From a virus, in IMG/VR virus record IMGVR_UViG_3300032070_000002, positions 1 to 64,000 of that record: 64,000 nucleotides of DNA; one strand, written 5' to 3'. The translations under genes and the position numbers were made by a program. Position 1 is the stretch's first letter; each line of letters begins with the position of its first letter. Under the pieces are notes generated by a model. That model saw only the letters and a list, made by a program, of their open reading frames with translations, was not told the DNA's origin and ran no database searches. Positions 34,115 through 60,597 of the stretch are shown here, piece after piece.

Positions 34115-34794
34115 TGTGTAATAAGGGACAAGAATTTAATGTGACAAATGATATTTGCCTTAAATGTGATAATTTTAGGGAGTGTAGTTTTTTTAAAACA
34201 TTTAAGGAATTAGAAAATAAGTCTTTAAACATTCCAAAAATATTAGGAGTAACGGATAAAGGAAAATTTCAAATAGAGTATACCGAAATAAAAGAAATAG
34301 CATTAAGTCAAAATAAAAATTCTAAATATTATAAGGGAGATAAAATTACAGAAAATGAAGTAAAAGATTTTCAAATAACATTAGGTTTAGTAAATACGAT
34401 AGACGATATTATTAACATAATAAGGAGGTATTAAATGAAGAAACTTAATAAGTTTGAAAACGTAGCATTTAATTGTTTACGGAAGTTATTCGGATTTAAT
34501 AAAGCGTTAAATATAATGAGAAAATTTTGGAGAGGATATTTTAGATTACAATATCTTCCTAAATCGCTATACTATAGCGTAGTAATATTTTATTATAAAT
34601 CGTGTATTCTTCTTATTAAAAAGGTAGGTATATAAAATGAAAATACAAATATACTCTATAATGTATAGAAACTTAAAAAATGTATTCACATTTTTACACG
34701 GTACGAAGAATGGTAAAGAATGCATAATAGGAGAGTGTCACGGTTCTTTATGGAATACTATAAAACTTATATTAAAAGTTTGGAGGACGAAAAC

Positions 34795-35166
34795 GTGAAA
34801 ATTCAAACAGAAGTAAAATTAGATTCTGCTCATAGATTACCGAACTATATTGGCAAGTGTGCTAATTTGCACGGGCATACTTGGAAGATAGTAATTACGG
34901 TAGATGCAGAAGTTTTAGATATAAACGAATTTGCGGTAGATTTTGTAAAGGTAAAAGAAGTAATGAATAAATACGACCACACCTACTTAAATAATTTTAT
35001 AGAAAATCCTAATGCGGAAAATTTAGCTTATAAGTTTGCTAATGAGATAAAGGAATTAGGTAATCAATATATGGAAGGAACCGCAAGTCCGATAGGAAAT
35101 AGATTTAACTACGTGACAGTTAAAGTGTATGAAAGCGAGGTTAGTTTTGCTGAGGTCACAATATAG
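34795..35166 (+). CDS. queD: 6-carboxy-5,6,7,8-tetrahydropterin synthase
   Basis: SAHRL, KCANLHGH, DHTYLN, P.AENLA and VYE motifs; GTG start after GGAGG. Confidence 0.92.
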   Translation: MKIQTEVKLDSAHRLPNYIGKCANLHGHTWKIVITVDAEVLDINEFAVDFVKVKEVMNKYDHTYLNNFIENPNAENLAYKFANEIKELGNQYMEGTASPIGNRFNYVTVKVYESEVSFAEVTI

Positions 35167-35178
35167 GGAGGGTAAATA

Positions 35179-35667
35179 ATGAAATACAAACTAACAAATG
35201 TAACAAAGGTATGGTGTGGAATAACCTTGCATCAGATTGAGGCGACTATTTCTTTTGGTGGTATATCTAAAGGCGATAAGGGGGGATATATAGAAAAAGA
35301 AAATAATTTAGACCAATCTGGCGACGCTTGGGTGTCTGACAACGCTCGGGTGTCTGGCAACGCTTGGGTGTATGGCAACGCTCAGGTGTATGGCGACGCT
35401 TGGGTGTATGGCAACGCTTGGGTGTCTGACAACGCTTGGGTGTCTGACAACGCTCGGGTGTCTGACAACGCTCGGGTGTATGACAACGCTTGGGTGTATG
35501 GCAATGCTCAGGTGTATGGCGACGCTTGGGTGTATGGCAAATTAAAACTTACTTTTGGGTACTTTTTTGGAATACGCTTTAAAAAAGAAAAAATAAAATA
35601 TGTAAAATTAGATGATAATAATGAGATTATTTGTAAGGGGGATATAAAGTTTGAGGAACTTAAATAA
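35179..35667 (+). CDS. Hexapeptide-repeat (left-handed beta-helix) protein
   Basis: GD.GGYIE.E.NL followed by 12 x (G/D)(D/N)A(W/R/Q)V(S/Y). Confidence 0.85.
35320..35535 (+). repeat. 18-nt tandem repeat, 12 units
   Basis: gRcRaYgctYRggtgtMt units. Confidence 0.92.
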
Positions 35668-35693
35668 CCTATGCCTAACCCCGGAGGCTCACA

Positions 35694-36206
35694 ATGAATG
35701 AATTACGGGAAGCGATTGAGGTATTAGAGCAACTTTATAATATCAGAATGGGGCAATGTGGTTATATGCCACCATACGAAACGAGTAAAGAGGCAAAGGC
35801 ATTACAGCTTGCTATTTCCTTCCTCCAAGTTTTAGAGGGCAAGGGGATGCCGGAGTTTCATTCAGTTAAGGATAATTATACTTCTTTTGAAAAATATACC
35901 GAATGTGAACATAAGAAGATTGATGCACTCGGAAATAATTGCCAAGCGTGTGATATTGCCTGGCTTATAGAAAGATGCAAATGTTTAGAAAAAACTATTA
36001 AAGAATATAATGTCTACCACGCCAAACTCCAAGCAGAATGGCGGGAGAAGGCGGGGGTGGAGAAGATAGAGAAAATAATAGAAGAAAATGACGAATTTCC
36101 TAATATGTCTATTCAAACATTAAGAGATTTAAATGTAAATAATTTATTAGCATATAATCCAAAAAGATTAGCCCAAGCCCTATCTGATTACCTGGAGGTA
36201 AAGTGA
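35694..36206 (+). CDS. Hypothetical protein
   Basis: 170-aa ORF with GGAGG RBS. Confidence 0.55.
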   Translation: MNELREAIEVLEQLYNIRMGQCGYMPPYETSKEAKALQLAISFLQVLEGKGMPEFHSVKDNYTSFEKYTECEHKKIDALGNNCQACDIAWLIERCKCLEKTIKEYNVYHAKLQAEWREKAGVEKIEKIIEENDEFPNMSIQTLRDLNVNNLLAYNPKRLAQALSDYLEVK

Positions 36207-36338
36207 GTATGGAGAATAAAATGATGCAATGTAGTATTTGTAAAGAATTTTTTAATCCCGCAATGTTATCAGAAGTATTTGAACACGAACATAGTAATAT
36301 ATCTACAGATAAAGAATACTACGGAAAGAAAGTAGAAA

Positions 36339-36770
36339 ATGAAAAAAATTAAGTATACTTGGCAAGAATTTGATAAAGATGTAATACTTTTAATTAGAAG
36401 GATTAAGTACTCAAAATTTCAGCCGGAAACCTTAGTCTGTCTAGCTACAGGCGGTTGCCCTCTAGGTACAAAATTACATAATAGATTAGAAAAACCCCTA
36501 ACAATTATAAGTGTAAAAAGTTACGAGGATACTAAACAGGGTGCGATACTTTTAAATAGTTCCTATACCGTTCCTTTAAGGTCTCCGGTTTTATTATTAG
36601 ATGATGTGGCGGACTCCGGAAAAACTATACAATTAGTAAAATCACATTTAGAGTTGGGAGGAGTAGAAGTAAGGACGGCTACACTGTTTTATAAAGAACA
36701 TTCTGTAATTAAACCCGATTGGTATATTCATAAAATAAGTGAGGAATGGCTAATTTTTCCTTGGGAGTAA
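36339..36770 (+). CDS. Purine phosphoribosyltransferase (Gpt-like)
   Basis: LLLDDVADSGKT PRPP motif; PDWY; WLIFPWE. Confidence 0.9.
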   Translation: MKKIKYTWQEFDKDVILLIRRIKYSKFQPETLVCLATGGCPLGTKLHNRLEKPLTIISVKSYEDTKQGAILLNSSYTVPLRSPVLLLDDVADSGKTIQLVKSHLELGGVEVRTATLFYKEHSVIKPDWYIHKISEEWLIFPWE

Positions 36771-36771
36771 T

Positions 36772-37929
36772 ATGAATAAAATTTTTATAAATCTTCCAAG
36801 TAAATATACTACTATTATGTTAGTAGCACCTACGGGATTAGTAAACGAATTTGAAAAATATCCTTACGGTATTTCTCATTTTTTAGAGCATATGCATTTT
36901 AAGGGTACAAAGAAAAGAACTACAAAACAAATAGCTTATGATATAGAAAGATACGGCGGAGATTTAAACGCTTTTACGGATAGTGAAATTACGGGTTATT
37001 ATGTTAAAATAGCTAATCGTTATATGAATAAAGGTTTTGACGTAATTTCAGACCTAGTAGAAAATTGCGTAATCCCGGAAGAGGAAATAGATAAAGAAAG
37101 AAAAGTAATATTACAAGAGTTAAAAAGTTATGAAGACGATCCTCAAGAGAAAGTTAGTGATTTATTTTATACAAATATGTATAATATTCACTATCCACTT
37201 CATTACCCTATTATAGGTTTCCCTTCTACTTTAAATCAAATAGGTAGAAAGGAATTATTAAAATATAAAAAGGATAGATATAATCCATTAACTTTAATTA
37301 TAGTAGGCGATATCGCGGATTGTTTAGATATTAAATTGTGTCCTACCTCTTATCCAAAAGTAAATTTTCTTTCTACTAACAAAGAAAAATTTATAGAGCG
37401 AAATAATTTACAACAAGCACAAGTTATTATAGGATTTTCTCAATTTTTACCTATTGATGCTACAACTTTATTTTTTACGGTAGCTTTAATAGAATCAATT
37501 TTAAACGATATGAGCGGAAGACTATTTACGGAAATTAGAGAAAATCATAATTTAGTATACGGTATTAGATTTTCAAGTACTATTTTTGGAAATAATCTAT
37601 TTCAATGGAAAGTAAGTTTAGGATTAGAAAAAAATAAAATAAATCAAGCAAAAGAATTAATAATTAAGGAATTAACAAGACCTTTTACTAGCCAAGAAGT
37701 TGAAGATGCGGTAATTAAATCTATAGGAGAGCTAGAATTAAGGACTTCGTCTTTTTTAATTTCTAATATTATCGCAAATAGTATAACGACTAATATAGAT
37801 TGGCAACGAATAATTTTTAACTATAAAGAGGAATTTAAGAGAGTAAAAGATTATGTAAATAGTGTGCAAGAATTAATAGATTTTACTAATTATAAAATAG
37901 TAGGCCTCATTCCGGGAGATAAAAAGTGA
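36772..37929 (+). CDS. M16 family zinc peptidase
   Basis: GISHFLEHMHFKGT, LNAFT, ERKVILQE and RLFTEIRE..LVY motifs. Confidence 0.92.
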   Translation: MNKIFINLPSKYTTIMLVAPTGLVNEFEKYPYGISHFLEHMHFKGTKKRTTKQIAYDIERYGGDLNAFTDSEITGYYVKIANRYMNKGFDVISDLVENCVIPEEEIDKERKVILQELKSYEDDPQEKVSDLFYTNMYNIHYPLHYPIIGFPSTLNQIGRKELLKYKKDRYNPLTLIIVGDIADCLDIKLCPTSYPKVNFLSTNKEKFIERNNLQQAQVIIGFSQFLPIDATTLFFTVALIESILNDMSGRLFTEIRENHNLVYGIRFSSTIFGNNLFQWKVSLGLEKNKINQAKELIIKELTRPFTSQEVEDAVIKSIGELELRTSSFLISNIIANSITTNIDWQRIIFNYKEEFKRVKDYVNSVQELIDFTNYKIVGLIPGDKK

Positions 37930-38567
37930 AGATAAATGAAATTTTTAAGAGTATACAGGGTGAAGGAAGATTTCAGGGATATCCTGCATTGTTTATTAGG
38001 GTTTCCGGTTGTACAAGAAAGTGTAAATGGTGCGATTCTAAATACCATATTAACGGGGAAGAATTTACGATAGAAGAATTAGTAAATGAAATTGATGATA
38101 GGCCAGAAACGGCTATAGTTGTATTTACTGGAGGCGAGCCCTTACTATATTTAGAAGAAATAACACACATAATTAGCGAGTTAAAAGGTATTGACGTTAA
38201 GTGGCATTTGGAAACGAATAGTGATTTAATTAAGACTCAAAAAGATTTTAACGATATAATAAAAACTTTTAACTATATAGTAATTAGTCCAAAGGAATTA
38301 TCTGTTGTAGAAGAAATAATTAAATTTAAAAATGCTACCTGTTTTAAGGACTATCTTGAAAGGGTTGAAATAAAAATAGTAACTGACTTAGATAAAATAA
38401 ATAAAGATTTAGTGCCTTATGCTACTTCTTTAATGCCCTATACTTCTTATAATAAAAAGAAAGATATAGAAATAAGAAAAAGAGTATGGGCGTATTGCGT
38501 AACACATAATTTACATTATAGTGCTAGATTACAAGTAATAAATTTTAATAAGAAGAGGGGGGTATAG
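37926..38567 (+). CDS. queE: 7-carboxy-7-deazaguanine synthase (radical SAM)
   Basis: EIFKSIQGEG, FIR.SGCTRKCKWCD, TGGEP, ETN and SPK motifs. Confidence 0.93.
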   Translation: MKINEIFKSIQGEGRFQGYPALFIRVSGCTRKCKWCDSKYHINGEEFTIEELVNEIDDRPETAIVVFTGGEPLLYLEEITHIISELKGIDVKWHLETNSDLIKTQKDFNDIIKTFNYIVISPKELSVVEEIIKFKNATCFKDYLERVEIKIVTDLDKINKDLVPYATSLMPYTSYNKKKDIEIRKRVWAYCVTHNLHYSARLQVINFNKKRGV

Positions 38568-39160
38568 TGGATAACTTTCCCGAGTTTAAAGAATTTAAAA
38601 AAATACCTAGATTAAGTAGAAAGATTATTATTACCGAAAAAATTGACGGCACTAACGGTTTAATTTATATTGACGAAATAAATAATATTTTTGCAGGAAG
38701 TAGAAACAGATTTCTTTGGGGATCAATTCAAGAAGAAATTCATAATGATAATCACGGTTTTGCTCAATGGGTAAAAACTAATAAGGAAGAATTATTAAAA
38801 TTAGGCAAGGGGTATCATTATGGCGAGTGGTGGGGAAGCGGAATACAAAGAGGCTATAATTTGCCTAAAGGAGAAAAGAGATTTAGTTTATTTAATACCG
38901 ATAGATGGATTAAAGATAGAACACAACCCCTATTAGAAAAACAAGAGTATTGTCCCGAATGTTGTTACGTTGTGCCTATTTTATGGACAGGTATTTTTAA
39001 TACATCCGACATAGATTCTATTTTAGATAATTTAGTATTAAAAGGTAGTAGTGCTTCATTAGGATTTATGCAACCAGAGGGAATTGTAATTTATCATAGG
39101 GCGGGTAATTTAATGTTTAAGAAAACGATTGAGAAGGATGAAAAAGGAAAAAATGAATAA
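38567..39160 (+). CDS. RNA ligase (Rnl2-like nucleotidyltransferase)
   Basis: TEKIDGTN, GSRNR, YGEW.G.GIQ, VVPIL and PEGIV motifs. Confidence 0.85.
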   Translation: MDNFPEFKEFKKIPRLSRKIIITEKIDGTNGLIYIDEINNIFAGSRNRFLWGSIQEEIHNDNHGFAQWVKTNKEELLKLGKGYHYGEWWGSGIQRGYNLPKGEKRFSLFNTDRWIKDRTQPLLEKQEYCPECCYVVPILWTGIFNTSDIDSILDNLVLKGSSASLGFMQPEGIVIYHRAGNLMFKKTIEKDEKGKNE

Positions 39161-40039
39161 TATTTGGTCTATAAATATTTCAGATTTTTTAGAAATACTA
39201 GAAGAGGCAATTAAGTTAGGTAGAGAAAGAGGTAAAAAAGAGGGCGAAAATATAGAACCGGAATTTTTTGAGATAGCAAAAAAGAAAAATAAAATGCCTA
39301 AACATTTAGGCGCAACAGAATTAAATAAAGAAGAATTACTAGAAGAATATAAATTAAGAAATTTAAAAGTATTAGATTTAACTAAAAAGGAGAAATAAAT
39401 GGAAGAGTTAAAATTATATAACGGGTTACGCGTTAAAGTTTGGCAGTTAGGCTGCGGCGAAAATAAATCCGCAGGCGGATATTCTATTTGTAGAGTATAT
39501 ATTTGGAGTGAAAATTTAATTAAGGAGTTAGGATTAGGGCAGCCCTTTCATTGCGCATATCAAGAAGCTGAAGAGTTAGCGGTTTTAATAGATGCGGAAT
39601 TAACTTTAAATGGATCAATCGTAAGAAAATCTACTAACGGAGAATATAAATGAAGTGTATAATTTGTAATTTAGAATTAACAGAAGCCGATGAAATAATA
39701 ACTCAATACGGTTTAGATATGCATAAAAGTTGTGAAGAAAAATTTATATACTATACTAATCCTACTTATAGAGACTATATAAAATGTTGTAATGTAAAAC
39801 ACGATATAATAGGTTTACTTAAACAGGGTAAATTTATAGGTATTGGAAAATGTAAAATATGTGGAAAGACTTATATTACTAGTAGACTTCCAAAAAATCC
39901 AAAACCTAGAAAACCTAAAGCTCCAGAAAGATATTCAGACGACGCCGAAAGAAGAAAAATGTTTGGAGTAAAGTAAAATGGTTATTAATTTATTAATAAT
40001 ATATTTAACAATTTTATATATAGTATCAAGGAGAAGAAA

Positions 40040-40873
40040 ATGAAGGACTTACTACCGGATATTCAAAATACGCCTGTTTCTTCTATTCAAATAGATAGAG
40101 TAGGAGTAACGGATATTGATTTTCCGCTACCCATAAAATTAAAAAACGGTATAATTCAAACTATTTATTCTACCGCACATTTATATGGTTCCTTACCTAA
40201 AACAAGAAAAGGAACTAATATGTCTAGGTATTTAGAAGTATTATTTCAACAAAAACAACCTTTAAACGTAAGAAAAAATTTAAGAGATTTTCTATATCAA
40301 TTATTACAAGTAGTAGATACGAAGGATATATATTGTGAAATTAATTTTAAATTATTTATGGAGAAAATAGCTCCGGTTTCAAAAAAGAAAGGTGTGTTAG
40401 CATATAATTGTTCTCTTATAGGCAGATTACAACAAGGTAAGTATACTTTCTTTAATTATGCATATAAAATTAAAGTTCCCGTTACTTCGGTTTGTCCTTG
40501 TTCTAAACAAATAAGTAAGTTCGGCGCACATAATCAAAGAGGCTACGTTGAAGCTACTATAATATTTGAAAAAAATAAATCAATTCCTTTAGAGGATTTA
40601 ATAAAACTAATAGAAAAACAAGGCTCGTGTGAACTATATCCTATTTTAAAAAGACCCGATGAGAAATACGTAACCGAAAAGGGCTATAAAAATGCAAAAT
40701 TTGTAGAGGATATATGTAGAGATGTGGCTATTAAGTTGCAAGAGATAAGTGTAATAAAGAAGTTTAAAATTAAGGTTGAAAATTTTGAAAGTATACACGA
40801 CCATAACGCGGTAGCGTATGTTTTTAGAAAGAGACGGGGTAAGAGATGGACTTCAGATATACAAATAATTTAA
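40040..40873 (+). CDS. folE2: GTP cyclohydrolase IB
   Basis: LPDIQ, GTNMSR, CPCSK, AHNQR, KRPDEK, KFVED and ESIH.HNA motifs. Confidence 0.95.
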   Translation: MKDLLPDIQNTPVSSIQIDRVGVTDIDFPLPIKLKNGIIQTIYSTAHLYGSLPKTRKGTNMSRYLEVLFQQKQPLNVRKNLRDFLYQLLQVVDTKDIYCEINFKLFMEKIAPVSKKKGVLAYNCSLIGRLQQGKYTFFNYAYKIKVPVTSVCPCSKQISKFGAHNQRGYVEATIIFEKNKSIPLEDLIKLIEKQGSCELYPILKRPDEKYVTEKGYKNAKFVEDICRDVAIKLQEISVIKKFKIKVENFESIHDHNAVAYVFRKRRGKRWTSDIQII

Positions 40874-41440
40874 AAAGTGTTCTACATTTGAATTATAATA
40901 TAGATAAGGAGGAAGTAAATGAGTGCAGATAATGGCGTTTATATCTTACATACTAAAGATGGATATCGTGTAACTCAAGCTCAAGCGATAGAGAATATTT
41001 ATTGGTGGAGAATTTATACGTGTGATTGTAAAATAGGTAATTCAGAAAGTTGGAGTGAATGTATAAAATGTGGAGCGTTAATTATTAATGAAGAAAGGCC
41101 GGAACCAAATCCAATAGTATTAAAAAATTATTTCGGATTGTGCAAAGTGTTTAACATAGTAGAAGAAGCGTTAAAAGAAGCGGGTAGAATTTATAATGAA
41201 GTAATTAACGATCCTATTTGTCCAATCTGTGAATACGGTATCGGCGTGCTTGATTGTAGTAAAATAGTATTTCCAAAATAGAGGAATAGATGAAAGTTAC
41301 TTGTCCGTTATGTGGAACAGAAGTAGAAGCAAAAGAAATATTTTTACATACCTCGGAATTTAGAATTTTCGGATTATCTTTATCTCAAATAAAGAAAAGA
41401 TTAGATTTTGCTAGGAGTAAAGATTATGCGGAGGAATAGA

Positions 41441-41641
41441 ATGGAAACACTTTCAGGCCTTTGGAAAAATAAGGGTAAAACAGGCGAATACTTATCCGCT
41501 TCTTTAGGTAAGGTAAAAATTTATGTATTTCCAAATTCCTTTAAACAACTAGGTACTAATCAACCTGATTATTATTTATGTGTAAAAGGAGCCGAAGGTT
41601 TATTTAGTAAAATTTTAAATAGAATATTTAAGAGGAGGTGA
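41441..41641 (+). CDS. DUF736-like small protein
   Basis: GLW...K.GEYLS...N.FK..QPDY pattern. Confidence 0.55.
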   Translation: METLSGLWKNKGKTGEYLSASLGKVKIYVFPNSFKQLGTNQPDYYLCVKGAEGLFSKILNRIFKRR

Positions 41642-41645
41642 GTAA

Positions 41646-41876
41646 ATGGGCAAGAATAGCAGATTAGGAAGAATCAAAGGTTTATTAGCAGAAGGAAAGA
41701 CAACCGATGAGATAGTAGAAGTTATAAAGGCGAAGTTTCCGGATGCAAAGTCTACCGTTGTAAGAGGCCAGATTTATTCCGCGAAGAAAGGTAAGACAGT
41801 AAAGGAAACAGCTACAACAGAAGGCGTAGAAAAACCGGCGGAAGGTACTACTACCGCTCCAACGACAGGCGTTTAA
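41646..41876 (+). CDS. Small basic HTH-like DNA-binding protein
   Basis: GAGGAGGTGA RBS and its own terminator; paralog of the C-terminus of 27018..27542. Confidence 0.55.
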   Translation: MGKNSRLGRIKGLLAEGKTTDEIVEVIKAKFPDAKSTVVRGQIYSAKKGKTVKETATTEGVEKPAEGTTTAPTTGV

Positions 41877-41900
41877 TAAATAATAAAGATCGATAAGGAG

Positions 41901-41937
41901 AGTAAGAGCTATCCGTTAAAGATAGCTCTTACTTTTA
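41901..41937 (+). terminator. Rho-independent terminator
   Basis: Perfect 13-bp stem agtaagagctatc/gatagctcttact, then ttt. Confidence 0.8.
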
Positions 41938-41945
41938 TTAAAATT

Positions 41946-42686
41946 ATGAAATTAGCTTTTATTGTTCCTAGTTCTTATATTAAAGAAGTAGATAAGTATT
42001 GTGACTTACACTTATTTCTTTCTCATTTACTTTATAATAATTCTTACGCCGCCGCAGTTTTATCAATTAATAAATATAAAATTTTAGATAACGGCGCTTT
42101 TGAAACTGGCATACCGGAAGAAGGAAATACGCTATTATCAAAAATGGATTTTGTAAAAGCAAATGAAGTAATATGCCCTGATATATTTTACAATACAAAG
42201 GAAACCTTAAAAAAAGTTAAAACTTTTATATCTTTTTTAAAGAAGAAAAAGGAATTAAGAAATTATAAATTACAAGCTTCTATTCACGGCAGAACATTAA
42301 ATGAATTATTATATTGTTATGCAGAATATTTAGATATAAAAGAAATAGACGTAATAGGAATAGGCTATACCGCTATAAAATATAGCGGATTTAGTAGGAT
42401 AGAATTTATACGCGGATTACAAGGAGAAGGATTATTACAAAAATCCATACATTTGTTAGGGTTAGGAAATAACGGGGGAGAAGAGTTGAAGGAGTTAGGC
42501 AAATGTAAATTTATAAGGTCAAATGACAGTTCTGCAGCGTATGTTTTAGCAAGGGATAATAAATTAATAAGTCCTATAGGAAAATTTGAAAGGAATAAGA
42601 AACCTATAGATTTTAATGACGAATATAAATTAGAAACATATTTAACTCTAAAGCGAAATATGCAAACTTTAAGAAGGTTAGGATGA
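41946..42686 (+). CDS. dpdA: TGT-family DNA 7-deazaguanine transglycosylase (DpdA-like)
   Basis: ILDNGAFE, CPD, IHG, IHLLG and RSNDSS motifs; co-occurs with folE2/queD/queE/queC. Confidence 0.75.
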   Translation: MKLAFIVPSSYIKEVDKYCDLHLFLSHLLYNNSYAAAVLSINKYKILDNGAFETGIPEEGNTLLSKMDFVKANEVICPDIFYNTKETLKKVKTFISFLKKKKELRNYKLQASIHGRTLNELLYCYAEYLDIKEIDVIGIGYTAIKYSGFSRIEFIRGLQGEGLLQKSIHLLGLGNNGGEELKELGKCKFIRSNDSSAAYVLARDNKLISPIGKFERNKKPIDFNDEYKLETYLTLKRNMQTLRRLG

Positions 42687-43429
42687 AATATTTTGAGCGC
42701 TGGTCAGAAAAGGAACTTAAAGAATTAGAAGAATATATGAAACAAAAGTTAACTAGCGAAGAAATTGCTAAACTTTTAGATAGAACAGAAAATACGGTAA
42801 GAATACATATGAGAAGATTAAGAACTAAAACTTCTACCTATGGAAATAAGGGAGGTAGAAGATATAAAAGAGAATTAGATACCGAATTTATTAATTTAAT
42901 TAAACCTAAAGATATACTAGACGGTTATTGCGGTAGTGAAACACATTATCCAAAAGAAATAACAATAACAAATGATATAAATAAATCTTTTAATACCTCT
43001 TATCACTTACCGATTTTTAAACTTTTAGCAAAATTTACATATGAAAATAAGAAATTTGATTTAATAGATTTAGACCCTTGGGGTTCTGCATACGATAGTT
43101 TATATTTAGCAATTTATTTAGCTAATAAAGGTTTAGTAGTTTCTTACGGCGAATGTTACTTAAAAAGATTTAAGCGTATAGATTTTGCGGCAGAAAAATA
43201 CGGTTTGTATTTTGATAAATACGGTTTTAGTACAAAGATGTTAGTTGAATATACAAAACATTTAGGAATGATTTGCCGAAAAAAATTAGAAGTATATAAG
43301 GATTATGATTTAGGGCACTTTAGTAGAGTATACTATATAATAAAACCTTTAAAAACATTAAAAGTTGTCCAAAGTTGGAATACTATTAGAGAAAGAAAAG
43401 AAGAGTATGCTAAAAAAGCAGTTACATAA
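42683..43429 (+). CDS. HTH-fused SAM-dependent methyltransferase with Trm1-like motif IV
   Basis: N-terminal W...E...L..EEIA.LL.RT..V HTH; ILDGYCG, TNDIN and FDLIDLDPWGS motifs. Confidence 0.7.
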   Translation: MKYFERWSEKELKELEEYMKQKLTSEEIAKLLDRTENTVRIHMRRLRTKTSTYGNKGGRRYKRELDTEFINLIKPKDILDGYCGSETHYPKEITITNDINKSFNTSYHLPIFKLLAKFTYENKKFDLIDLDPWGSAYDSLYLAIYLANKGLVVSYGECYLKRFKRIDFAAEKYGLYFDKYGFSTKMLVEYTKHLGMICRKKLEVYKDYDLGHFSRVYYIIKPLKTLKVVQSWNTIRERKEEYAKKAVT

Positions 43430-43850
43430 AAAACATCTTAATTATTGGCGTAAACGTAAAAGATGTATTATTTGTAAAGTAATATTAACTAGAAAAAATT
43501 TACGCCCTTGGATGAAAAGGTGTTACAGATATATTTGTAATATATGTGAAAGAAAAGGGTCTATATCTTACTATAGGGAACATCAATTGTCTTCTGGAAA
43601 TAAGTATTTTTCTAATATTAATAAACGGTCCTATCCTAAAGACGGTAAATGCGAAATTTGTAAAAGGAATAAAACCCTTAAAGGTAAATCTATTAGATTA
43701 GTTTACCACCACTGGAATAATAAAGACTTTTTGAAAGGTATTTGGACGTGCGTATATTGTCACGCTATGATGGAGTGTATAGAAAAAGGGCGTCATTTAG
43801 TTTATTTTAAACTTAAAAAATTAATAGAAAAATTAGAAGGTAAAAAATGA
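43407..43850 (+). CDS. HNH-like zinc-finger endonuclease
   Basis: CxxC pairs; CEIC..LVYHH..W.CVYCH. Confidence 0.65.
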   Translation: MLKKQLHKKHLNYWRKRKRCIICKVILTRKNLRPWMKRCYRYICNICERKGSISYYREHQLSSGNKYFSNINKRSYPKDGKCEICKRNKTLKGKSIRLVYHHWNNKDFLKGIWTCVYCHAMMECIEKGRHLVYFKLKKLIEKLEGKK

Positions 43851-44728
43851 GTAAACCCCGGGCGGAAGCTAGAAATTTGTGGATAGAACGTTTCAAAAAC
43901 TATTTAAAAACTCTAAAAAAAGAAGAATTAGAGTTAATAAAAAAAGAAGTGTTGCCTACCTCTAAAGTAAATAATTTAGAAGTTTTTAATTCTGGAATAA
44001 TGGGAAGTCAAAGATTAATATATAAAGAGATAACAAATAATATTCCTAAGGATGTAAAAACGATAGCCGTTCCTTTTGCTTGCGGTTTAGATTTAACTTA
44101 TTATTTAACTAAAAAGGGTTATGTAGTTTATTCTTGTGATAGAATGGAATGCGTAAGAATATTAACAGAAGTATTAAAAGATTTTATAACGGATACGGAT
44201 TTAGTAAAAGCTTCAAATATTTTATGTTTTACAACGGGAAAATCTTTTGGTTGGGAAGACTATATCAAAATTATGCGGTTAAAATTATTTGTAGGTGATA
44301 AGTATAGGAATTGGTTTCATTGGCAAGAAGATGCTTTTGAGTGGCTACCTAGAATGATGGCGGCCCTGAATGTGGATTTAGTATATTTAGGTACGCCCAC
44401 TATAATGGAAAATAATAAGAAATTCTATCAAAGATATGTAAAGTTAGAAAAGGAGTTAGGTAACGAAATTTCGGACGATTGGAATAGAGATAACGAAATG
44501 TTAAGGTTCCGTAAATTAGTGGAAATATGCAAGTCCAAAGCCGTTAAATACGTATACGCTGGCCACGGTAGTGGAGTCTCTAAAGTAGAAGAAAAAGAAA
44601 GTATATTAAAAGAATACTATAAGTATGTCTATACACTTTTTAAGCCGTATGATACCTTTAATGATTACGTGTTGTTTGCAAGTGAAGTACCCTTAAGGAT
44701 TGATAGGAGACTATGGTATGAGAGATAA
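43847..44728 (+). CDS. Dam/D12-like methyltransferase with degenerate catalytic motif
   Basis: MGSQ..I...I (motif X), VPFACG (motif I), YSCD (motif II), DAFEW; DLVYLGTPT replaces DLVYLDPPY. Confidence 0.6.
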   Translation: MSKPRAEARNLWIERFKNYLKTLKKEELELIKKEVLPTSKVNNLEVFNSGIMGSQRLIYKEITNNIPKDVKTIAVPFACGLDLTYYLTKKGYVVYSCDRMECVRILTEVLKDFITDTDLVKASNILCFTTGKSFGWEDYIKIMRLKLFVGDKYRNWFHWQEDAFEWLPRMMAALNVDLVYLGTPTIMENNKKFYQRYVKLEKELGNEISDDWNRDNEMLRFRKLVEICKSKAVKYVYAGHGSGVSKVEEKESILKEYYKYVYTLFKPYDTFNDYVLFASEVPLRIDRRLWYER

Positions 44729-44878
44729 GTGTAAAAGTTGTAAGTTTAGAATAAGATTTAAGGGCTATTTTTCGGAGAGATATAATTATAGTTGCGTATA
44801 TAATAGACGAAAGGAAAATTGGAATAAAGAATTAAGGTGTAATAAAGAAAACGGTTATTACGCATATCAGGGGAAGAA

Positions 44879-46726
44879 ATGAAAGATAAAGTATTTGTGC
44901 TATTTTCAGGAGGAGTAGATTCAGCGGGACTATTATTTAACCTTCTTGAAAAAGGTTTTGAGTGTTTTCCCATATATTTCAAATGGCGGACTTGTAACGT
45001 AGCTATAAAAGAAGTAAAAATTATAAATTGGTTCTATGAAATGTATAAAGATAAATACCCGTTATTTCATAAACCGGAAATTCATTTTGAAAGAGAAATA
45101 GCAGAAACAATAGATACTAAAGAAAACATTATGAGTAGAAATAGAATATTCCTTAAATGGTTGATAGATAGATGTATTAAAGAAAATATACATAACATAG
45201 GAATGGGCGAATACTCTTTTAAAAAAGCACCCGATATTTGGCAAGAGAATGATGGCAAAAATTGTTGGATTTATTATTGGGGTCCTCCAAATGTTGATTG
45301 TGACGCAAACGACTTACAAGGCTTTATAAATAAAAATAATCCTAAGGATTTTAAAATTAAACTTTGGACATTAGACGACTTCGGAATTGCTACCTTTAAA
45401 CACCATAGAGTAGAAATAGGAAGAAAAGTTATAGGCTATGATATGTTTAAAACAACTTGCCTTTTAAAAGGTACTCAAATACTGATGGAAAATTACTCAA
45501 TTAAATTTATTGAAGATATCGTAGTAGGCGATATTATTTTAGGATTACGGGGAAGTAAACTTATACCTTCTAGAGTTATAAGGTTATTTAAAAGGACTTC
45601 TAGCGTAGGCTCTTTAAAATATAATAAAAAAGAATTATTATCTATTACCGATAATCATAAGATATTACAAGTAGCAAAAGATTCTGAAAAAACGTATGTA
45701 ATTCCTTCTGAATTAGTGAGTACAATTAGGGTATACGATATTAATAATAGTCGTTTTTTAGATGATTGGTATACGGGTTGGTTAGCGGGTTATACCGAAG
45801 GAGACGGTTGTTTGCGGCAATTACCTAATAATTACGTATTAAGTTACCATTCAAAAGATATTCAATTATTAGAATTTGTAAATGGTTGTTTAACTCAATT
45901 TGGTATACCTAAATTAAATATTAAAATATATGCTACATATAGAGGGCATAATTTATATAAAATGGCTACCTGGAAAAAATCTACAATAAATAAAGTAAAA
46001 GAAGTTATTTCTTTTATAGATACGAAAGATTATATGAGAGGCTATTTAGCGGGTATATATGATGCGGAAGGTTCCAATCAAAATACTTGTAAACATATTT
46101 GTATAAGTAATTCTAATCCGGTAATACTAAGTAAAATAGAAAAGTTTTTGAAGTGTTTAAAGTATTCGTATAAAAAGAGGTTAGGGCATCCAAAAGGAAC
46201 GGGTAATTTATTCAGTAATAACGGTAAAAGATATTTATCTAAAAGAGATTTATACTTAATTTGTATGCCAAATTATATTAAATTTAATATAGAGTGTAAA
46301 CCGGTGTTAAAAAGAAAAATTAAATATACTTCTACTACTTGGAAATTGAAAGATCGAATTTGCAATTTTAAATACATAAACAATATAAAGGATAATCAAG
46401 TTGTTTACAATTTAGAAACAGAAACTGGAAATTATATAGCAAATGGTATAATTGTACATAATTGTTGCGGTAAAGGAGGAAACGGCCCCGATTGTGGAGG
46501 CCTATATCAGCAGGATTATTTATGCGCAGAAAGACACGTAGCAATGTTAAAAGTTTTTGGATATGACAACACATTTTATTTAAAGGATCCTAAATTTAAT
46601 CCTTACTTTATTGAGTATTGTGTTCAAATGAATTATTTACCGGGTATTCTTTGGACACTTAAAAATAATAAAAAGGCTTTAAGAATTTCAAAATTAAATT
46701 TAATTAAAATATTAAAAGAATATTAA
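44879..46726 (+). CDS. queC: Divergent QueC-like PP-loop ATPase with LAGLIDADG intein
   Basis: LFSGGVDS, SRN, DC, and TTC-C...CG...CAER after intein removal. Confidence 0.7.
   Translation: MKDKVFVLFSGGVDSAGLLFNLLEKGFECFPIYFKWRTCNVAIKEVKIINWFYEMYKDKYPLFHKPEIHFEREIAETIDTKENIMSRNRIFLKWLIDRCIKENIHNIGMGEYSFKKAPDIWQENDGKNCWIYYWGPPNVDCDANDLQGFINKNNPKDFKIKLWTLDDFGIATFKHHRVEIGRKVIGYDMFKTTCLLKGTQILMENYSIKFIEDIVVGDIILGLRGSKLIPSRVIRLFKRTSSVGSLKYNKKELLSITDNHKILQVAKDSEKTYVIPSELVSTIRVYDINNSRFLDDWYTGWLAGYTEGDGCLRQLPNNYVLSYHSKDIQLLEFVNGCLTQFGIPKLNIKIYATYRGHNLYKMATWKKSTINKVKEVISFIDTKDYMRGYLAGIYDAEGSNQNTCKHICISNSNPVILSKIEKFLKCLKYSYKKRLGHPKGTGNLFSNNGKRYLSKRDLYLICMPNYIKFNIECKPVLKRKIKYTSTTWKLKDRICNFKYINNIKDNQVVYNLETETGNYIANGIIVHNCCGKGGNGPDCGGLYQQDYLCAERHVAMLKVFGYDNTFYLKDPKFNPYFIEYCVQMNYLPGILWTLKNNKKALRISKLNLIKILKEY
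45458..46462 (+). mobile_element. Intein (335 aa) with LAGLIDADG homing endonuclease
   Basis: CLLKGT start; T.NH block B; LAGYTEGDG and LAGIYDAEG; VYNLE..NY.ANG..VHN|C end. Confidence 0.95.
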
Positions 46727-46802
46727 AATATGGATACGTTACTCATAATAATAGTTATCGTAATAATTTTTGTAGTAGCTACTTATCCTAGAAGGAGTAA
46801 AA

Positions 46803-47051
46803 ATGAAAATAAATAGTTTTGACGAAAAAGAATTAAGAAAGTTTACAAAATGGGTTATTGAAGGAAATAGATTAGGAAAGAAAAAATATGCTAAGGATAA
46901 CTTTACTAGGGATAATATGTTTGAGTACCTCTACTCTGAATTACGAGATAGCGTAAACTATTTATTCTTCTTATATTTAAAGATTAAATTATTAGAAAAG
47001 AATATAATAAAATATTTACCCGAAGTTAAGGGCGTAAAAAAATTAAGATGA
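46803..47051 (+). CDS. Possible all-alpha NTP pyrophosphohydrolase-like protein
   Basis: GKKKY...SELRDSVNY pattern. Confidence 0.4.
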   Translation: MKINSFDEKELRKFTKWVIEGNRLGKKKYAKDNFTRDNMFEYLYSELRDSVNYLFFLYLKIKLLEKNIIKYLPEVKGVKKLR

Positions 47052-47293
47052 AAACTGAATATAAATATATTCAATTTGATTTAGTAGAACAAGATGAAAC
47101 AAAGAAGACTCAAGCATATACCGTAAGAAACATAAGTCTTCAGATAATATTAGGTTATATAAAACGGTATGGCGCTTGGAGACAATATTGTTTCTTTCCA
47201 ATGATAGGAACAATCTATGGCGAAGGATGTTTAAAAGATGTTGCAGATTTTGTAAAACAATTAATGGAAGATAGGAAGAAGGGAGGAACTTAA

Positions 47294-47740
47294 ATGTTTA
47301 CTAATATAAGATTCCAAGGATTCTTAAAATATAAAAAAGTAGTTTCCGATGCAAAAATTGATATGCCGGTATTTAGAGGAGATGTAGGATATGATATTCA
47401 TTCTATAGAAGACAAACTAATAAAAGCTAAAAGTTCTGAAATCGTAAGAACCGGTTTAGCTTTTGAAGTTAGTGAGGATTATTGGTTAGAATTAAGAACT
47501 AGAAGCGGCCACGGAGTAAAAAATTGTTTACAAATTCATATGGGAACCATTGATTCGGGATATAGAGAAGAGGTAACTATAAAAATATATAACCACGGTA
47601 ATCAGGATTATCAAATAAAGAAAGGAGATAAAATTTGTCAATTAGTTATTCACCCGAGAATTGTTTTACCCGCTAAAGAAGAAAAATATTTAAAGTCCTC
47701 GGATAGAGGTTTAAAGGGATTAGGGTCTACGGGAGGATAA
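47294..47740 (+). CDS. dut: Trimeric dUTPase
   Basis: GYDI, RSG, GTIDSGYR, GDKICQL and RG.KGLGSTG motifs. Confidence 0.93.
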   Translation: MFTNIRFQGFLKYKKVVSDAKIDMPVFRGDVGYDIHSIEDKLIKAKSSEIVRTGLAFEVSEDYWLELRTRSGHGVKNCLQIHMGTIDSGYREEVTIKIYNHGNQDYQIKKGDKICQLVIHPRIVLPAKEEKYLKSSDRGLKGLGSTGG

Positions 47741-47741
47741 A

Positions 47742-48236
47742 ATGAAGAAAGTATTAACCGTAATGGTAGGTAATATAGGCTCGGGTAAATCAACAATAAT
47801 AAAGAAATTAAGGTTACTTCCGCCCGGCTATGTAGTAATTTGCAGAGATAGTTTAAGATATATGATAGGCGGCGGCGATTATGTTTTTAATCCAAAGTTA
47901 GAGCCAACCATATTTAGGTCAGAAAAAAGTATTTTAGAAAACTTTATGGAACAATGTGAAAATGTAATAGTAGATGAAGTAGGAATAAGTAAAAGTATGA
48001 GAAGGCCGTATATAGATTTAGCGATAGATTATGGTTATCAAGCAGTAGCAATTGTAATGCCTAAGTTAACTATGGAAGAATCTGTAAATAGAAGAATGAA
48101 TAAACCCCACGGTACTCCTAGAAAAACGTGGTATGAAGTTTGGAAAAAGTTTGACGAGTTATATGAAGAACCTACTAAAAGAGAAGGATTTAGAGATATA
48201 ATTAAAATAGGAAGAGAAGAAGTAGGGTTAAAATGA
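47742..48236 (+). CDS. P-loop kinase (AAA_33/PNK-like)
   Basis: VGNIGSGKST, CRDSLR, VIVD and EP...EGF motifs. Confidence 0.85.
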   Translation: MKKVLTVMVGNIGSGKSTIIKKLRLLPPGYVVICRDSLRYMIGGGDYVFNPKLEPTIFRSEKSILENFMEQCENVIVDEVGISKSMRRPYIDLAIDYGYQAVAIVMPKLTMEESVNRRMNKPHGTPRKTWYEVWKKFDELYEEPTKREGFRDIIKIGREEVGLK

Positions 48237-48387
48237 ATTTAAACGAACAATTATTACAAGAGGTACAAATTTCTATAGATAAAGTAAATCATATTATGGC
48301 GGATGATGAACTTACTCCTTCCGCTAAACAGTTTCTTTTAAAAGAAGAATTTAAAAAACAAAGAAACTTAAGTAAGATGAGAGAAGA

Positions 48388-51300
48388 ATGGAACAAGACA
48401 TAAAACCGGATAATTGTATTAAGTGCGGCCTTTGGAAGACTAGTTGTGTAGTAAACTATCAAGGACAATTCTTTGCATATAGAGTTATGGGAACCGGTCC
48501 TCAAAATGCTAAAGTTATATTTATAGGAGAAGCTTTAGGACAAGCCGAAACAATTAATCAAAAACCGTTTGTAGGAGATGCGGGCGATACTCTAAATATC
48601 GCCTTAAAAGAAGCTAATATAAATAGGGAAGACGTTTATATAACAAATACTTGTAAGTGTTTTTACAGTCCTAATGTATTAGTATTTACTTCAAAAGGAT
48701 GGAAAATGCTTGGAAAGATACGTAAGGACGATTTAGTATTAACTCATAAAGGACGATTTAGAAGAGTTATAGCCCCTTTAAAAATAAAGGTACATCCGGA
48801 CACTACTTTTTTTACTTGTTATCTTAAGTCTAACGGCGGTAATCCCTATAAAATTACCGTTACCGGAGATCATAAATTTTTAACAAATAAGGAATGGACT
48901 AAAGTTAGCGACTTACGAATAGGGGATAGGGTAAGAGTTCTTGCACAAAAATGTATTCAATGCGGTTCCTTATTTTATTCGGATTATAGGCAAACTCAAC
49001 TTTGCTCCTTAGAATGTACTAAGAAATGGAACGGTATTAGAGGTGCCCGTCAAAACAGAGTTCAAAATATTAGAGATAATATTTCTAAAAGTATGAAAGA
49101 ATTATATAAAAAAGGAATAAGAAACGGATTTAAAGATACTATTAATTTTCGTAGAAAATTAGACGGTAGCTTAAATGTTATAGGTAGAAACGGGGTAGGC
49201 GAAAAAGAACTATACGAATTATTAACTAAGAATAGGTACGAAGTAAAGCGCCAAAAATTAATAGCGGATAGATATTTTGCAGATTTTTATTTACCTAAAT
49301 TGAATATAGTAATAGAGGTGTGGAATAGTAGTTATAGAAGTATGATAGATAAAAGAATATGGTATGAACAAAGAGGTTATAAATTTTTAGATTATCATTA
49401 TTCAATAATTTTTAGATATCCGGAAGTAATTTTAACGGAAATTAGAAATTTAGAAAAAAATGATAATCACGAATTTAACTTTATAGATACCTTATTAATA
49501 GATAAAAAAGGGATTACGCCGAGACGAAAAAGCGTATTTTCTTTATCGGTAGTAGAAGACGAATCTTTTATAGCAGGGGGTTTAGTTTCGCATAACTGTC
49601 GTCCTCCTGAAAATAGGCCGCCTAAAACAATGGAAATAAAATGCTGTCTTCCTTTTTTATTAGAAGAAATTAGAAATATAAGCCCAAAAATTATATGTAC
49701 TTTAGGAAGTGTAGCGTTAGAAGCAATATTAAAACGTAAAGGAATATCAAATATTAGAGGTAATATATACGAAACCGAAATAGAGGGATTAAAAGTTAAA
49801 GTTATTCCTACCTATCATCCGGCCTATGTTTTAAGACGTCCCGAATATCCTAATTTAAAAGTAGACTTTCATAAAGATATAAAGTTAGTTAAAGAAGTAA
49901 GCGATAATTTAGATTATAAAAAAGAAAAGCTTCCTACCTATTACTGTACTACTCCTAAGGTAGAAGATATTTTAATATATATAGATAAAATTAAAAAAGT
50001 AGGCTTATTTGGGTACGATATAGAAACGGAAGGTTTTAACTTTTTAAAAGATAGAATCATATCTATAGCCTTAAGTTGCGTCGTACAAGAAGCTATAGCT
50101 TTTTATTTGATAGATTATACCCCGGATGAACAAGATAAAATATTTGCGGGATTAAAAGAAATATTAGAATCAAAAGAACTTCTTAAAATAGGTCAAAATT
50201 TAAAATTTGATAATAAGTTTTTTAAAACATACGGTATTGAAGTTAAACTACCCTTATTTGATACTATGTTAGCACATTTTTTAATAGACGAAAATAGTTC
50301 TCACGGTTTAAAAGATTTAGCTTATAAATATACGGATATGGGTGGATATGAAGAAAACTTTGAAAATATATTTAAAGAATTAAAAGGTAAAATGAAAAAA
50401 GATTTAATAGAAAGTTTAAAAGAAACAAAGAAAAACTCTTTAGAAGTATATACTAAATTATTACAAGAAGGATTAGAAAAGATAGATAATTTTTCTATAG
50501 TACCTAAAGAAGTTTTATTACCGTATAACGCCTCTGATGTTGATTGTACTTTAAGGATTTATTATGCATTAAAAGATTTAATAGAAAAAGAAGAATTGAC
50601 TAAAGTATACTATTATATTATGATACCTTTACTAATAGTATTAACGGAAACGGAATATAGCGGTATTCAAATAGATACTAACTACCTTAATATTTTATCA
50701 AAAGATTTACAAGATAGAATAGAAGATATACAATTTCAAATAAATAGTAGGCCGGAAATAAAAAAAGTAGAAGAACTTTTACCTAGTTTAATTAAAAGTA
50801 AAAAAATAGAAGATATTAAATTTAATATTAATTCTCCTAAACACCTTCAAGTCTTATTGTATAAAGTTTGTAATTTACAACCTATTAAACAAATAAAAAC
50901 CGGTTATTCAACGGATGAGGCTACTTTAAAAACATTACAAGAAAAAAGTGAAATAGTAAAGTTAATTATGCAATATAGAACGATCAATCACGATTTTACT
51001 ACGTATGTAGAACAATTAAGAAGTAGTTTAGATGAAAACGGAAAATGTCATACGGATTATATGCAACACGGCGCTGTTAGCGGTAGAGTAATTTCTCATA
51101 AACCTAACTTACAAAATATTCCTAGGGATTCTAATATTAAAAAATTATTTATACCGGATAAAGGGTGCGTAATAATATCTGCGGACTATGCTCAAATTGA
51201 GTACAAAGTATGGGCTAACTATTCTAATGATCCTCAAATGTTAGAGGATATTAGAAATGGGTTAGATATCCATTCGGAAGTTTGTTGTTTAGTGTGGCCT

Positions 51301-59460: not shown

Positions 59461-60597
59461 ATGAGAAATTCTTGGAATTTAAAAGATATTGACAATCTTA
59501 AAAAAATGATGAAACAAAATATTCATCCAATAGAAATAGCGAAAACATTACAGCGGTCTTATGATTCAGTATGTGGAAAAATAAAATCAATTAAAAGAGA
59601 AGAAAAAATAGGAATTAAACCATATGAAAAAACAGAAGGAAAATTCAAGAACGAAGAAATAGTAGAAGAAACCAAAAAATATTTTGAGGCTGCAAAAGGC
59701 ATTATTCATAAATATGATGATTTATATAAAAATATTAAATTAAAGACCTCTTTTTCATCTGCAAAACAAACAGAAGACCAGGTATTATTATTTTCTGATA
59801 TGCACACTGGTATGATTAACAAAGCCCCTATTACCGGAGAAATAACATATAATCCAGAAATTCAGAAAAAAGAATTACAAACTTTAATGGAAGGATTATA
59901 TAGATTTTATCAATTATATAAACCTTCTTATAATATAGAAACTTTTTATATTTTTTCTTTAGGAGATTTAATTACCAATGATAGAATTTATGAAGGACAG
60001 AAAATGGAAATCGCTTTTGGCGTAGGTATACAAATTACAGAAACATTAGAATATGTTAGTGATATGATTAGAAAATTATTGGAAATTTATCCCAGAATAG
60101 TTTATATTAATATAGTCGGAAATCACGGCAGAACTACGCCTCAGCCCATTAGCGAAGATGCTACGAGCAATTTTGAATATTTATTGGGAATATCATTAAA
60201 AGAAAGATTTGCTGGCAATAAAAGAGTAGAAATAATCCTCCCAGACGATTATTCTTATTCTTATACTATAAAAAATCATAGATATTTATTAGCTCACGGA
60301 AATACTATTAGTGGTTCAACATTAAATTCAATAGAAAGGGCGGCAAAAGATATTGCTAATTTAGTAGAAAGAGATTATTATGATGTTATTACAATTGGGC
60401 ATTTTCATAGTTGTTATGAATTGCCGAGTATTTCTCCTTCAACTACTCTTTTAGTTAATGGATGTTTTATTTATAAAGATGATTATGCCTATACCAAATT
60501 AAGAAAACATTCTACTGCTAAACAGTATTTATTTAATGTTTCAAAAAAATCAGCAATGCACAATTTACAGAAGGTGGATTTAAGGTGGAATAAATGA
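59461..60597 (+). CDS. HTH-fused calcineurin-like metallophosphoesterase
   Basis: SDMH.G, LGD, GNHGR, AHG and GHFH motifs. Confidence 0.85.
   Translation: MRNSWNLKDIDNLKKMMKQNIHPIEIAKTLQRSYDSVCGKIKSIKREEKIGIKPYEKTEGKFKNEEIVEETKKYFEAAKGIIHKYDDLYKNIKLKTSFSSAKQTEDQVLLFSDMHTGMINKAPITGEITYNPEIQKKELQTLMEGLYRFYQLYKPSYNIETFYIFSLGDLITNDRIYEGQKMEIAFGVGIQITETLEYVSDMIRKLLEIYPRIVYINIVGNHGRTTPQPISEDATSNFEYLLGISLKERFAGNKRVEIILPDDYSYSYTIKNHRYLLAHGNTISGSTLNSIERAAKDIANLVERDYYDVITIGHFHSCYELPSISPSTTLLVNGCFIYKDDYAYTKLRKHSTAKQYLFNVSKKSAMHNLQKVDLRWNK

Follow-up and report, generated by a model that had tools for sequence, protein, structure and literature searches.

What does a Trm1-like methyltransferase do in a phage operon that begins with a putative DNA guanine transglycosylase? 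The question is raised by the first 64 kb (64,000 nucleotides, hereafter the window) of the 90,229-bp virus record IMGVR_UViG_3300032070_000002, which comes from a sediment metagenome. A search of sequencing runs listed that probable source metagenome and one further run with a small share, and no RNA run among them. Here a 248-residue protein, MT1, follows a dpdA-like gene and joins an N-terminal helix-turn-helix (HTH) to a minimal S-adenosylmethionine (SAM) methyltransferase. A preliminary description of this DNA proposed that MT1 is coupled to dpdA and that the pair makes a new hypermodified guanine. We found no support for such a coupling. Its sequence and predicted structure place MT1, as best we can describe it, within the catalytic lineage of Trm1 as a new phage form, a divergent PF02005 offshoot with a Rossmann domain of about 180 residues, and on balance we lean towards a stand-alone DNA methyltransferase. 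To our knowledge, a catalytic core of the Trm1 type has so far been described only for enzymes that form N2,N2-dimethylguanosine (m2,2G) in tRNA.

The catalytic core and HTH of MT1

The gene and its recognizable elements are as follows.

42683–43429, plus strand: MT1, HTH plus minimal Trm1-like SAM methyltransferase, 248 residues; the subject of this analysis
42701–42829, plus strand: HTH of the sigma-70 region 4 / LuxR / GcrA type, residues 7–49
42914–42934, plus strand: motif I, ILDGYCG, the SAM-binding loop, residues 78–84 (D80 in 76 of 77 family members, G84 in 71 of 77)
42968–42982, plus strand: motif II, TNDIN, residues 96–100 (N97 and D98 in all 77)
43055–43087, plus strand: motif IV, FDLIDLDPWGS, the Trm1 signature, residues 125–135, aligning with FHFIDLDPFGS of Trm1 (PDB 2dul)

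All three motifs stand in MT1 exactly as first reported, and as sequence matches they exceed chance. Across the 77 family members, D126, D129, D131 (76/77), P132 (76/77), G134 and S135 vary little or not at all; the invariant residues of the family alignment include N97, D98, D126, D129, D131, G134, S135, G156, E157, K164, R165 and D167. The window copy keeps every one of the 17 columns that are invariant in a 28-sequence alignment.

Profile comparisons point to Trm1. The family is represented by 31 homologues of MT1 (35–43% identity over the local match), and a precomputed PF02005 match exists for 18 of the 32 listed proteins. When the family profile was compared with the PDB, the only methyltransferase match was Pyrococcus horikoshii Trm1 (2dul), over motif IV and the next helix (E = 9e-4). 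MT1 itself scores 14.5 bits against Pfam PF02005 (TRM; residues 120–147), below the 27-bit cut-off, and 13.8 bits against TIGR00308, for which the cut-off is 280. Three longer relatives exceed the PF02005 cut-off (P0109, 36.7 bits; P0123, 40.3 bits; P0075, 27.3 bits). Matches to the DNA methyltransferase families PF01555, PF02086 and PF02384 were absent at E ≤ 0.1, and a weak match links residues 69–132 to PHROG 11619, annotated 'DNA methyltransferase' (E = 1.7e-3).

The predicted structure gives the same answer. The AlphaFold2 (AF2) model of MT1 has a mean predicted local distance difference test score (pLDDT) of 82.5 with a confident Rossmann core, and a Foldseek search with it put Trm1 structures at ranks 1–5. 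A structure search of the ESM Atlas returned archaeal and eukaryotic Trm1 clusters (template-modelling score, TM, 0.72–0.76) and many viral clusters of 185–260 residues of the MT1 kind. The earlier statement that MT1 is Trm1-like, and not a (D/N/S)PP(Y/F) DNA amino-methyltransferase, therefore has the agreement of the profile, Foldseek, the ESM Atlas and the PF02005 relatives. In place of the canonical (D/N/S)-P-P-(Y/F/W) motif, MT1 has D-P-W, with only one proline. Motifs of the form D-P-[F/Y/W] belong to the amino-methyltransferase type and by themselves cannot separate methylation of guanine N2, adenine N6 and cytosine N4.

The likeness to Trm1, the tRNA (guanine26-N2)-dimethyltransferase (PF02005, TIGR00308; structures 2dul/2ejt and 3axs/3axt), extends to the class I Rossmann core and the N-D pair of motif II. 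Motif IV, (F/Y)D(L/I)IDLDP(F/Y)GS, and the helix after it align residue for residue, and Trm1 provides both the best Foldseek match and the longest VIA alignment. The D-[LI]-D-P-[FY]-G-S signature is thus present on a Rossmann core, with W in place of F/Y in the window copy, which stays below the family cut-offs. MT1 differs from Trm1 in its small catalytic core, in its N-terminal HTH and in lacking the C-terminal tRNA-binding domain: it ends at residue 248, and the structural alignments cover approximately residues 15–239 of Trm1 chains that are 367–387 residues long. It differs also in belonging to a viral family whose members lie in DNA-modification islands.

The N-terminal HTH that had been proposed is borne out by Pfam and by profile matches. 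Residues 5–50 match Sigma70_r4_2 (E = 2e-4) and GerE (E = 2.5e-3), both under the Pfam cut-off; the MT1 family profile matches PDB entry 2lvs (E = 3e-4) and, weakly, NarL; and the region is modelled as three helices with pLDDT above 90. By its sequence, the HTH seems to serve different enzymes as a transferable module for DNA targeting. The same module recurs in the window at 59461–59613 (profile E = 5e-6), at the head of a 378-residue protein encoded just after an SbcC-like gene. In another viral locus (L067, 15901–16030) it heads a 375-residue metallophosphoesterase-like protein in a DNA-repair neighbourhood.

Family distribution and linkage to deazaguanine genes

MT1 belongs to a family that is almost confined to viruses. 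We found 55 loci in IMG/VR, and an exhaustive profile search retrieved 91 clusters at E ≤ 1e-30 and 393 at E ≤ 1e-10. Among 185,579 cellular species genomes, only 6 metagenome-assembled contigs carry a member. A tblastn search with MT1 and the family member P0015 against 50,697 GenBank phage records gave no match, which leaves no isolate phage to serve as a model.

The recurrent neighbours in the 55 loci are genes of DNA modification: N6_N4 methylases (12 loci), the phrog_757 DNA methyltransferase (9), C5 cytosine methylases (5) and Mom-like proteins (3). NinG, RecT, primase-helicase, WhiB and pyrimidine-dimer glycosylase also recur. In 15 of the 55 loci the MT1 homologue has a recognised DNA-modification gene as its direct neighbour, and in 22 such a gene occurs somewhere in the locus. 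The DNA-directed role suggested for MT1 is favoured by this genome context in other phages.

Deazaguanine genes are not part of that context. We searched 49 whole IMG/VR records with an MT1 homologue, of which 17 are at least 90% complete, and found no QueC above cut-off and no profile or Pfam match to QueD, to tRNA-guanine transglycosylase (TGT) or to a DpdA3-like protein. A phmmer single-sequence survey of the neighbourhoods of the 55 MT1 loci gave dUTPase in 3 loci and nothing else. The converse search was equally empty: the MT1 methyltransferase domain occurs in none of the 80 DpdA3-like loci examined in IMG/VR, out of 196 found. These loci gave one A1-profile match, in L067, which was rejected as an MT1 homologue, being a match of the HTH alone on the 375-residue protein described above.

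The arrangement of the window operon and of its closest relative can now be compared. All long open reading frames (ORFs) of the virus record are on the plus strand (G+C about 30%), and those that surround MT1 form the chain DpdA-like – MT1 – HNH-like – MT2 – small ORF – QueC-like, preceded by a hairpin:

41898–41942, plus strand: terminator-like hairpin and U-tract, 16-bp stem and 7-nt loop (hairpin proper 41898–41936)
41946–42686, plus strand: DpdA-like ORF
43407–43850 (alternative start 43365), plus strand: HNH-like zinc-ribbon ORF, recognized by motif only (CxxC...HHWN...CxxCH)
43847–44728, plus strand: MT2, Dam-fold, D12-class-like, with GTPT at the position of Dam's DPPY
44718–44882 (alternative start 44700), plus strand: small Cys-rich ORF that overlaps the MT2 end and the QueC start
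44879–46726, plus strand: QueC-like PP-loop ATPase with a LAGLIDADG intein (Pfam/PHROG)

The hairpin proper has a folding free energy of −22.2 kcal/mol (z = −6.74; none of 200 shuffled sequences folds as stably in RNA form), and UUUUAUU follows immediately 3' of it. It is absent from the list of a simple terminator scanner. The hairpin and U-tract are intrinsic-terminator-like and end an upstream unit ahead of the dpdA operon; the reported terminator near 41901 and the run of overlapping genes after it are both there. Promoter-like sites were no more frequent than chance, and no Rfam family, the preQ1 riboswitch included, matched 34000–48500. Neither the HNH-like ORF nor the small Cys-rich ORF has a family match.

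The reported ATGA overlap of MT1 with dpdA is present in the sequence (...TTAGGATGAAATAT..., with GAAGG just before), and it could be taken to tie the two genes together in one operon with QueC. It is functionally uninformative because all genes of the operon overlap their neighbours alike; the junction between the HNH-like ORF and MT2 is an ATGA overlap too.

The closest related phage (L141, IMGVR_UViG_3300033147_000359) is more telling. Its gene order is QueE, primase-helicase, phosphoribosyltransferase, FolE2, a TrmB-type (winged-helix) HTH protein, MT2, QueC, a small ORF, DpdA, dUTPase and PolA, with neither MT1 nor the HNH-like ORF, which has no homologue there. MT1 and the HNH-like ORF thus differ between the two operons and look like an accessory insertion or loss. 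Moreover, no relative of MT1 above about 42% identity occurs among 5.8 billion proteins, and there is therefore no hidden dpdA-linked subclade.

The claim of a dpdA–MT1 coupling, and with it of a new deazaguanine hypermodification, is not supported by these three results (0 of 49 records, 0 of 80 loci, absence from L141); the lack of association between homologues and deazaguanine genes is an outcome that the preliminary description itself had named as a refutation. The place of MT1 after dpdA probably reflects the habit of the family to settle in DNA-modification islands, and not a step of the deazaguanine pathway.

Readings of MT1

We read MT1 as a phage-borne nucleic-acid methyltransferase because of its DNA-modification neighbours and the near-absence of the family from cellular genomes. 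Going one step further, sequence and models together make us lean, with some reserve, towards a stand-alone HTH-anchored phage DNA methyltransferase that contributes no step to the deazaguanine pathway. The HTH would anchor the enzyme on double-stranded phage DNA. A Trm1-type pocket would hold SAM through motifs I and II and the exocyclic amino group through D-P-[F/Y/W], and the enzyme would then methylate a flipped-out base (candidates are N2 of G, N6 of A and N4 of C). The methyl mark would shield phage DNA from host restriction, like those of other orphan phage methyltransferases. MT1 resembles these enzymes (Dam/D12, N6_N4 and C5 types, and HTH-fused Dam) in being stand-alone, in its early or replication region, in an HTH fusion of a kind often seen among them and in the occurrence of several per island. 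It differs from them in the single proline of D-P-[F/Y/W] and in having RNA enzymes as its fold neighbours.

Several observations weigh against this reading. Every one of the closest structural neighbours is an RNA methyltransferase (Trm1, RlmI/RlmO-like, TYW2 or Trm5), and there is no DNA methyltransferase among the top 50 VIA structural matches listed, which does not by itself exclude such a fold. Adjacency to DNA-modification genes is context, and is no proof of substrate. The window copy itself is unusual: it departs from the family at 11 of the 46 columns with conservation of 90% or more (the family median is 1), and changes lie beside catalytic residues (G159Y, H160L and F/Y133W). Because the window MT1 is a family outlier, its function may have shifted or decayed.

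The main rival, a serious one though we think it unlikely, is that the family consists of RNA methyltransferases. Their substrate would be tRNA or rRNA, of the host or the phage, and their product m2G (N2-methylguanosine), m2,2G or some other mark. Such marks might, for example, adjust translation or protect tRNAs against anticodon nucleases, and the HTH would be an RNA- or protein-binding handle. Such a role is in keeping with nearest structures that are all RNA enzymes, Trm1 first, and with the relatives above the PF02005 cut-off. The phage also encodes an RNA ligase (38567–39160; Pfam RNA_ligase, E = 2e-15) and an AAA_33/zeta-toxin-type kinase (47742–48236), a pair that recalls the T4 Pnkp/Rnl tRNA-repair counter-defence. 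However, MT1 lacks the C-terminal tRNA-binding domain of Trm1 and carries in its stead a DNA-type HTH, a module that is fused elsewhere to the metallophosphoesterase-like protein of a DNA-repair neighbourhood. The recurrent neighbours are not genes of RNA processing but DNA methylases, Mom-like proteins, NinG, RecT and primase-helicase, and no tRNA gene occurs within the window.

More doubtful than an RNA substrate is a specific version of the DNA reading, in which the HTH–Trm1-like family methylates N2 of G in double-stranded DNA, as an anti-restriction mark in the minor groove, and the window copy has adapted to N2 of 7-deazaguanine. Our literature search found no report of N2-methylguanine as a natural phage DNA mark, and nothing relevant on Trm1/PF02005 phage DNA methyltransferases.

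We consider it improbable that the window MT1 is a decaying or non-catalytic copy, kept as an HTH regulator or DNA-binding protein. Its deviation at conserved columns is the largest in the family, and besides the near-invariant G159 and H160 it has lost the D-A pair of motif III. Yet seven other family members are also without the motif III Asp, the ORF is intact and full length, the 17 invariant columns (residues of motifs II and IV among them) and the near-invariant D80 and G84 of motif I are kept, and the AF2 Rossmann core is confident. Its dinucleotide composition (CG 1.20, TG 0.68, CA 0.72) is that of the genome (1.17, 0.71 and 0.71). A test by composition for recent acquisition of MT1 likewise gave no sign of a recent insertion, the dinucleotide signature being that of the genome.

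Least probable of all, and by our estimate very unlikely, is that MT1 acts with DpdA to methylate N2 or the 7-substituent of a 7-deazaguanine in DNA, giving an undescribed hypermodified base: the linkage results, the missing subclade, the accessory look of MT1 and the uninformative gene overlap all stand against it. A substrate shift would be compatible with the window MT1 forming the longest branch of the family tree and with its unique changes near the active site, among them W133, which no other family sequence has (F in 54, Y in 22). Furthermore, DpdA3 is tied to full G replacement (PMC10516641), so that a G-directed enzyme would meet mostly deazaguanine. A role of this kind would be new, the known methylase of 2'-deoxy-7-aminomethyl-7-deazaguanosine (dPreQ1), DpdM, being unrelated. 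DpdM is a DUF3109 protein and the only validated deazaguanine methyltransferase; it acts on dPreQ1, has a metal-binding CxxxCxxCC motif, is encoded near dpdA and que genes and co-occurs with preQ1 pathways (PMC10516641). Were a deazaguanine derivative in DNA the substrate of MT1, DpdM would be its functional analogue. MT1 itself cannot be classed as a DpdM, which is a DUF3109 metal protein: MT1 has a Rossmann fold, no DUF3109 Pfam match and no CxxxCxxCC, and its family does not co-occur with deazaguanine genes.

Returning to the DNA methyltransferase that we favour, the interest of MT1 rests on the phage family and on the question of its substrate, and not on a deazaguanine link. This is a widespread, uncharacterised phage family with a DNA-type HTH, without the tRNA-binding domain, found among DNA methylase and Mom-like genes. 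If enzymes of the MT1 type act on DNA, they would be a fourth structural lineage of phage DNA methylation, and they could expose m2G, a modification for which sequencing-based methylome methods are not tuned.

The deazaguanine module and MT2

The gene that precedes MT1 has no Pfam or NCBIfam match, and its identity comes from fold and context. Its AF2 model, built from a 10-sequence alignment, has a pLDDT of 92, and the top Foldseek matches are archaeosine TGT and the bacterial and human TGTs (E = 1e-7 to 1e-5). Its family profile (A2) matches CPT_0056 of Campylobacter phage CP220 (E = 3e-25). Within 10 kb of the DpdA3-like gene, QueE occurs in 43 of the 80 loci examined and QueD in 37. CP220 encodes a DpdA3 and has all of its G replaced by 2'-deoxy-7-amido-7-deazaguanosine (dADG), and the DpdA3 type is associated with complete G replacement (PMC10516641). 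The features of a DpdA3, namely a TGT-type TIM barrel, homology to the CP220 protein and linkage to que genes, are all found in 41946–42686. This gene is therefore probably a DpdA-like DNA guanine transglycosylase of the DpdA3 subfamily, a name that rests on the CP220 statement of PMC10516641. The 'dpdA' label given at the outset is upheld by fold and genomic context, not by Pfam.

The remaining pathway genes lie upstream of the operon.

34720–35166, plus strand: QueD, 6-pyruvoyl tetrahydropterin synthase family (Pfam PTPS, E = 6e-23)
36339–36770, plus strand: purine phosphoribosyltransferase like hypoxanthine-guanine phosphoribosyltransferase (HGPRT) (Pfam Pribosyltran, E = 6e-19; NCBIfam XPRT/HGPRT)
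37926–38567, plus strand: QueE, radical-SAM 7-carboxy-7-deazaguanine (CDG) synthase (PHROG QueE-like, E = 3e-32; NCBIfam QueE models)
40040–40873, plus strand: FolE2, GTP cyclohydrolase IB (Pfam GCHY-1, E = 3e-79; NCBIfam FolE2, 239 bits, above cut-off)

The QueC-like gene at 44879–46726 matches PHROG QueC-like and is interrupted at a conserved Cys by an intein (approximately residues 194–529, nucleotides 45458–46465; Pfam LAGLIDADG_3, E = 3e-13, with Intein_splicing and Hom_end_hint; NCBIfam intein_Cterm). Its orthologue in L141 is intein-free, 262 residues long and above the Pfam QueC cut-off, which backs the 'queC-like' label. A search of the CP220 genome with the L141 QueC protein gave no match, a comparison that is uninformative. 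With FolE2, QueD, QueE, QueC and a DpdA3-type transglycosylase, the deazaguanine pathway is complete without MT1.

The window cluster resembles the known DpdA3 clusters (CP220 and Cellulophaga phage phiST; PMC10516641) in its CPT_0056 profile match, TGT fold and QueD/QueE linkage; as in phiST, relatives of the window DpdA have a dUTPase near the transglycosylase. Unlike them, this phage uses FolE2 and an intein-bearing QueC and adds the HGPRT-like gene and the Dam-fold MT2, and it alone has MT1 and the HNH-like ORF. In the DpdA3-like loci L057, L060, L077, L129 and L141 the dUTPase lies at most about 1.3 kb after the transglycosylase (directly after it in L060, L077, L129 and L141); in the window MT1, the HNH-like ORF, MT2, QueC and two small ORFs separate the two.

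It is MT2, not MT1, that is conserved with the deazaguanine module. In L141, MT2 (10001–10870) lies immediately upstream of QueC and overlaps its start. The ESM Atlas structure search with MT2 gave TM 0.70 to MethyltransfD12 clusters, and the L141 orthologue scores 20.7 bits against PF02086 (E = 3.8e-4; cut-off 22). At the position of Dam's DPPY the protein has LVYLGTPT, which is kept in its only known homologue, that of L141 (48% identity). PDB sequence searches with MT2 gave nothing useful. Because MT2 is Dam-fold, has a conserved GTPT and is linked to QueC in L141, these comparisons and models suggest that it is a better candidate than MT1 for a lineage-specific deazaguanine step. For deazaguanine biology our result is hence corrective: the pathway-specific candidate is MT2, not MT1.

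Several features of the surrounding cluster deserve mention. At least six loci (L060, L067, L081/L082, L133 and L141) have the HGPRT-like gene next to FolE2 and DpdA3-like genes. The enzyme could return guanine set free by the transglycosylase to guanosine mono- and triphosphate (GMP/GTP) for synthesis of preQ0 (7-cyano-7-deazaguanine); alternatively, it could produce a deazaguanine nucleotide. Between the phosphoribosyltransferase and QueE, and overlapping the start of QueE, lies a pair of M16 (insulinase-type) peptidase domains (36772–37929), an odd companion in a nucleotide-modification cluster. PolA, within 48388–51975, has 1195 residues compared with 815 in L141 and apparently contains a second intein (CFYSP...VSHNC); L141 has neither the QueC nor the PolA intein. 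Across the genome TpG and CpA are strongly depleted (odds ratio 0.71 each) and CpG is in excess (1.17), most extremely in the polymerase gene (TG 0.43–0.49, CG up to 1.56). This pattern is the reverse of the signature of 5-methylcytosine deamination.

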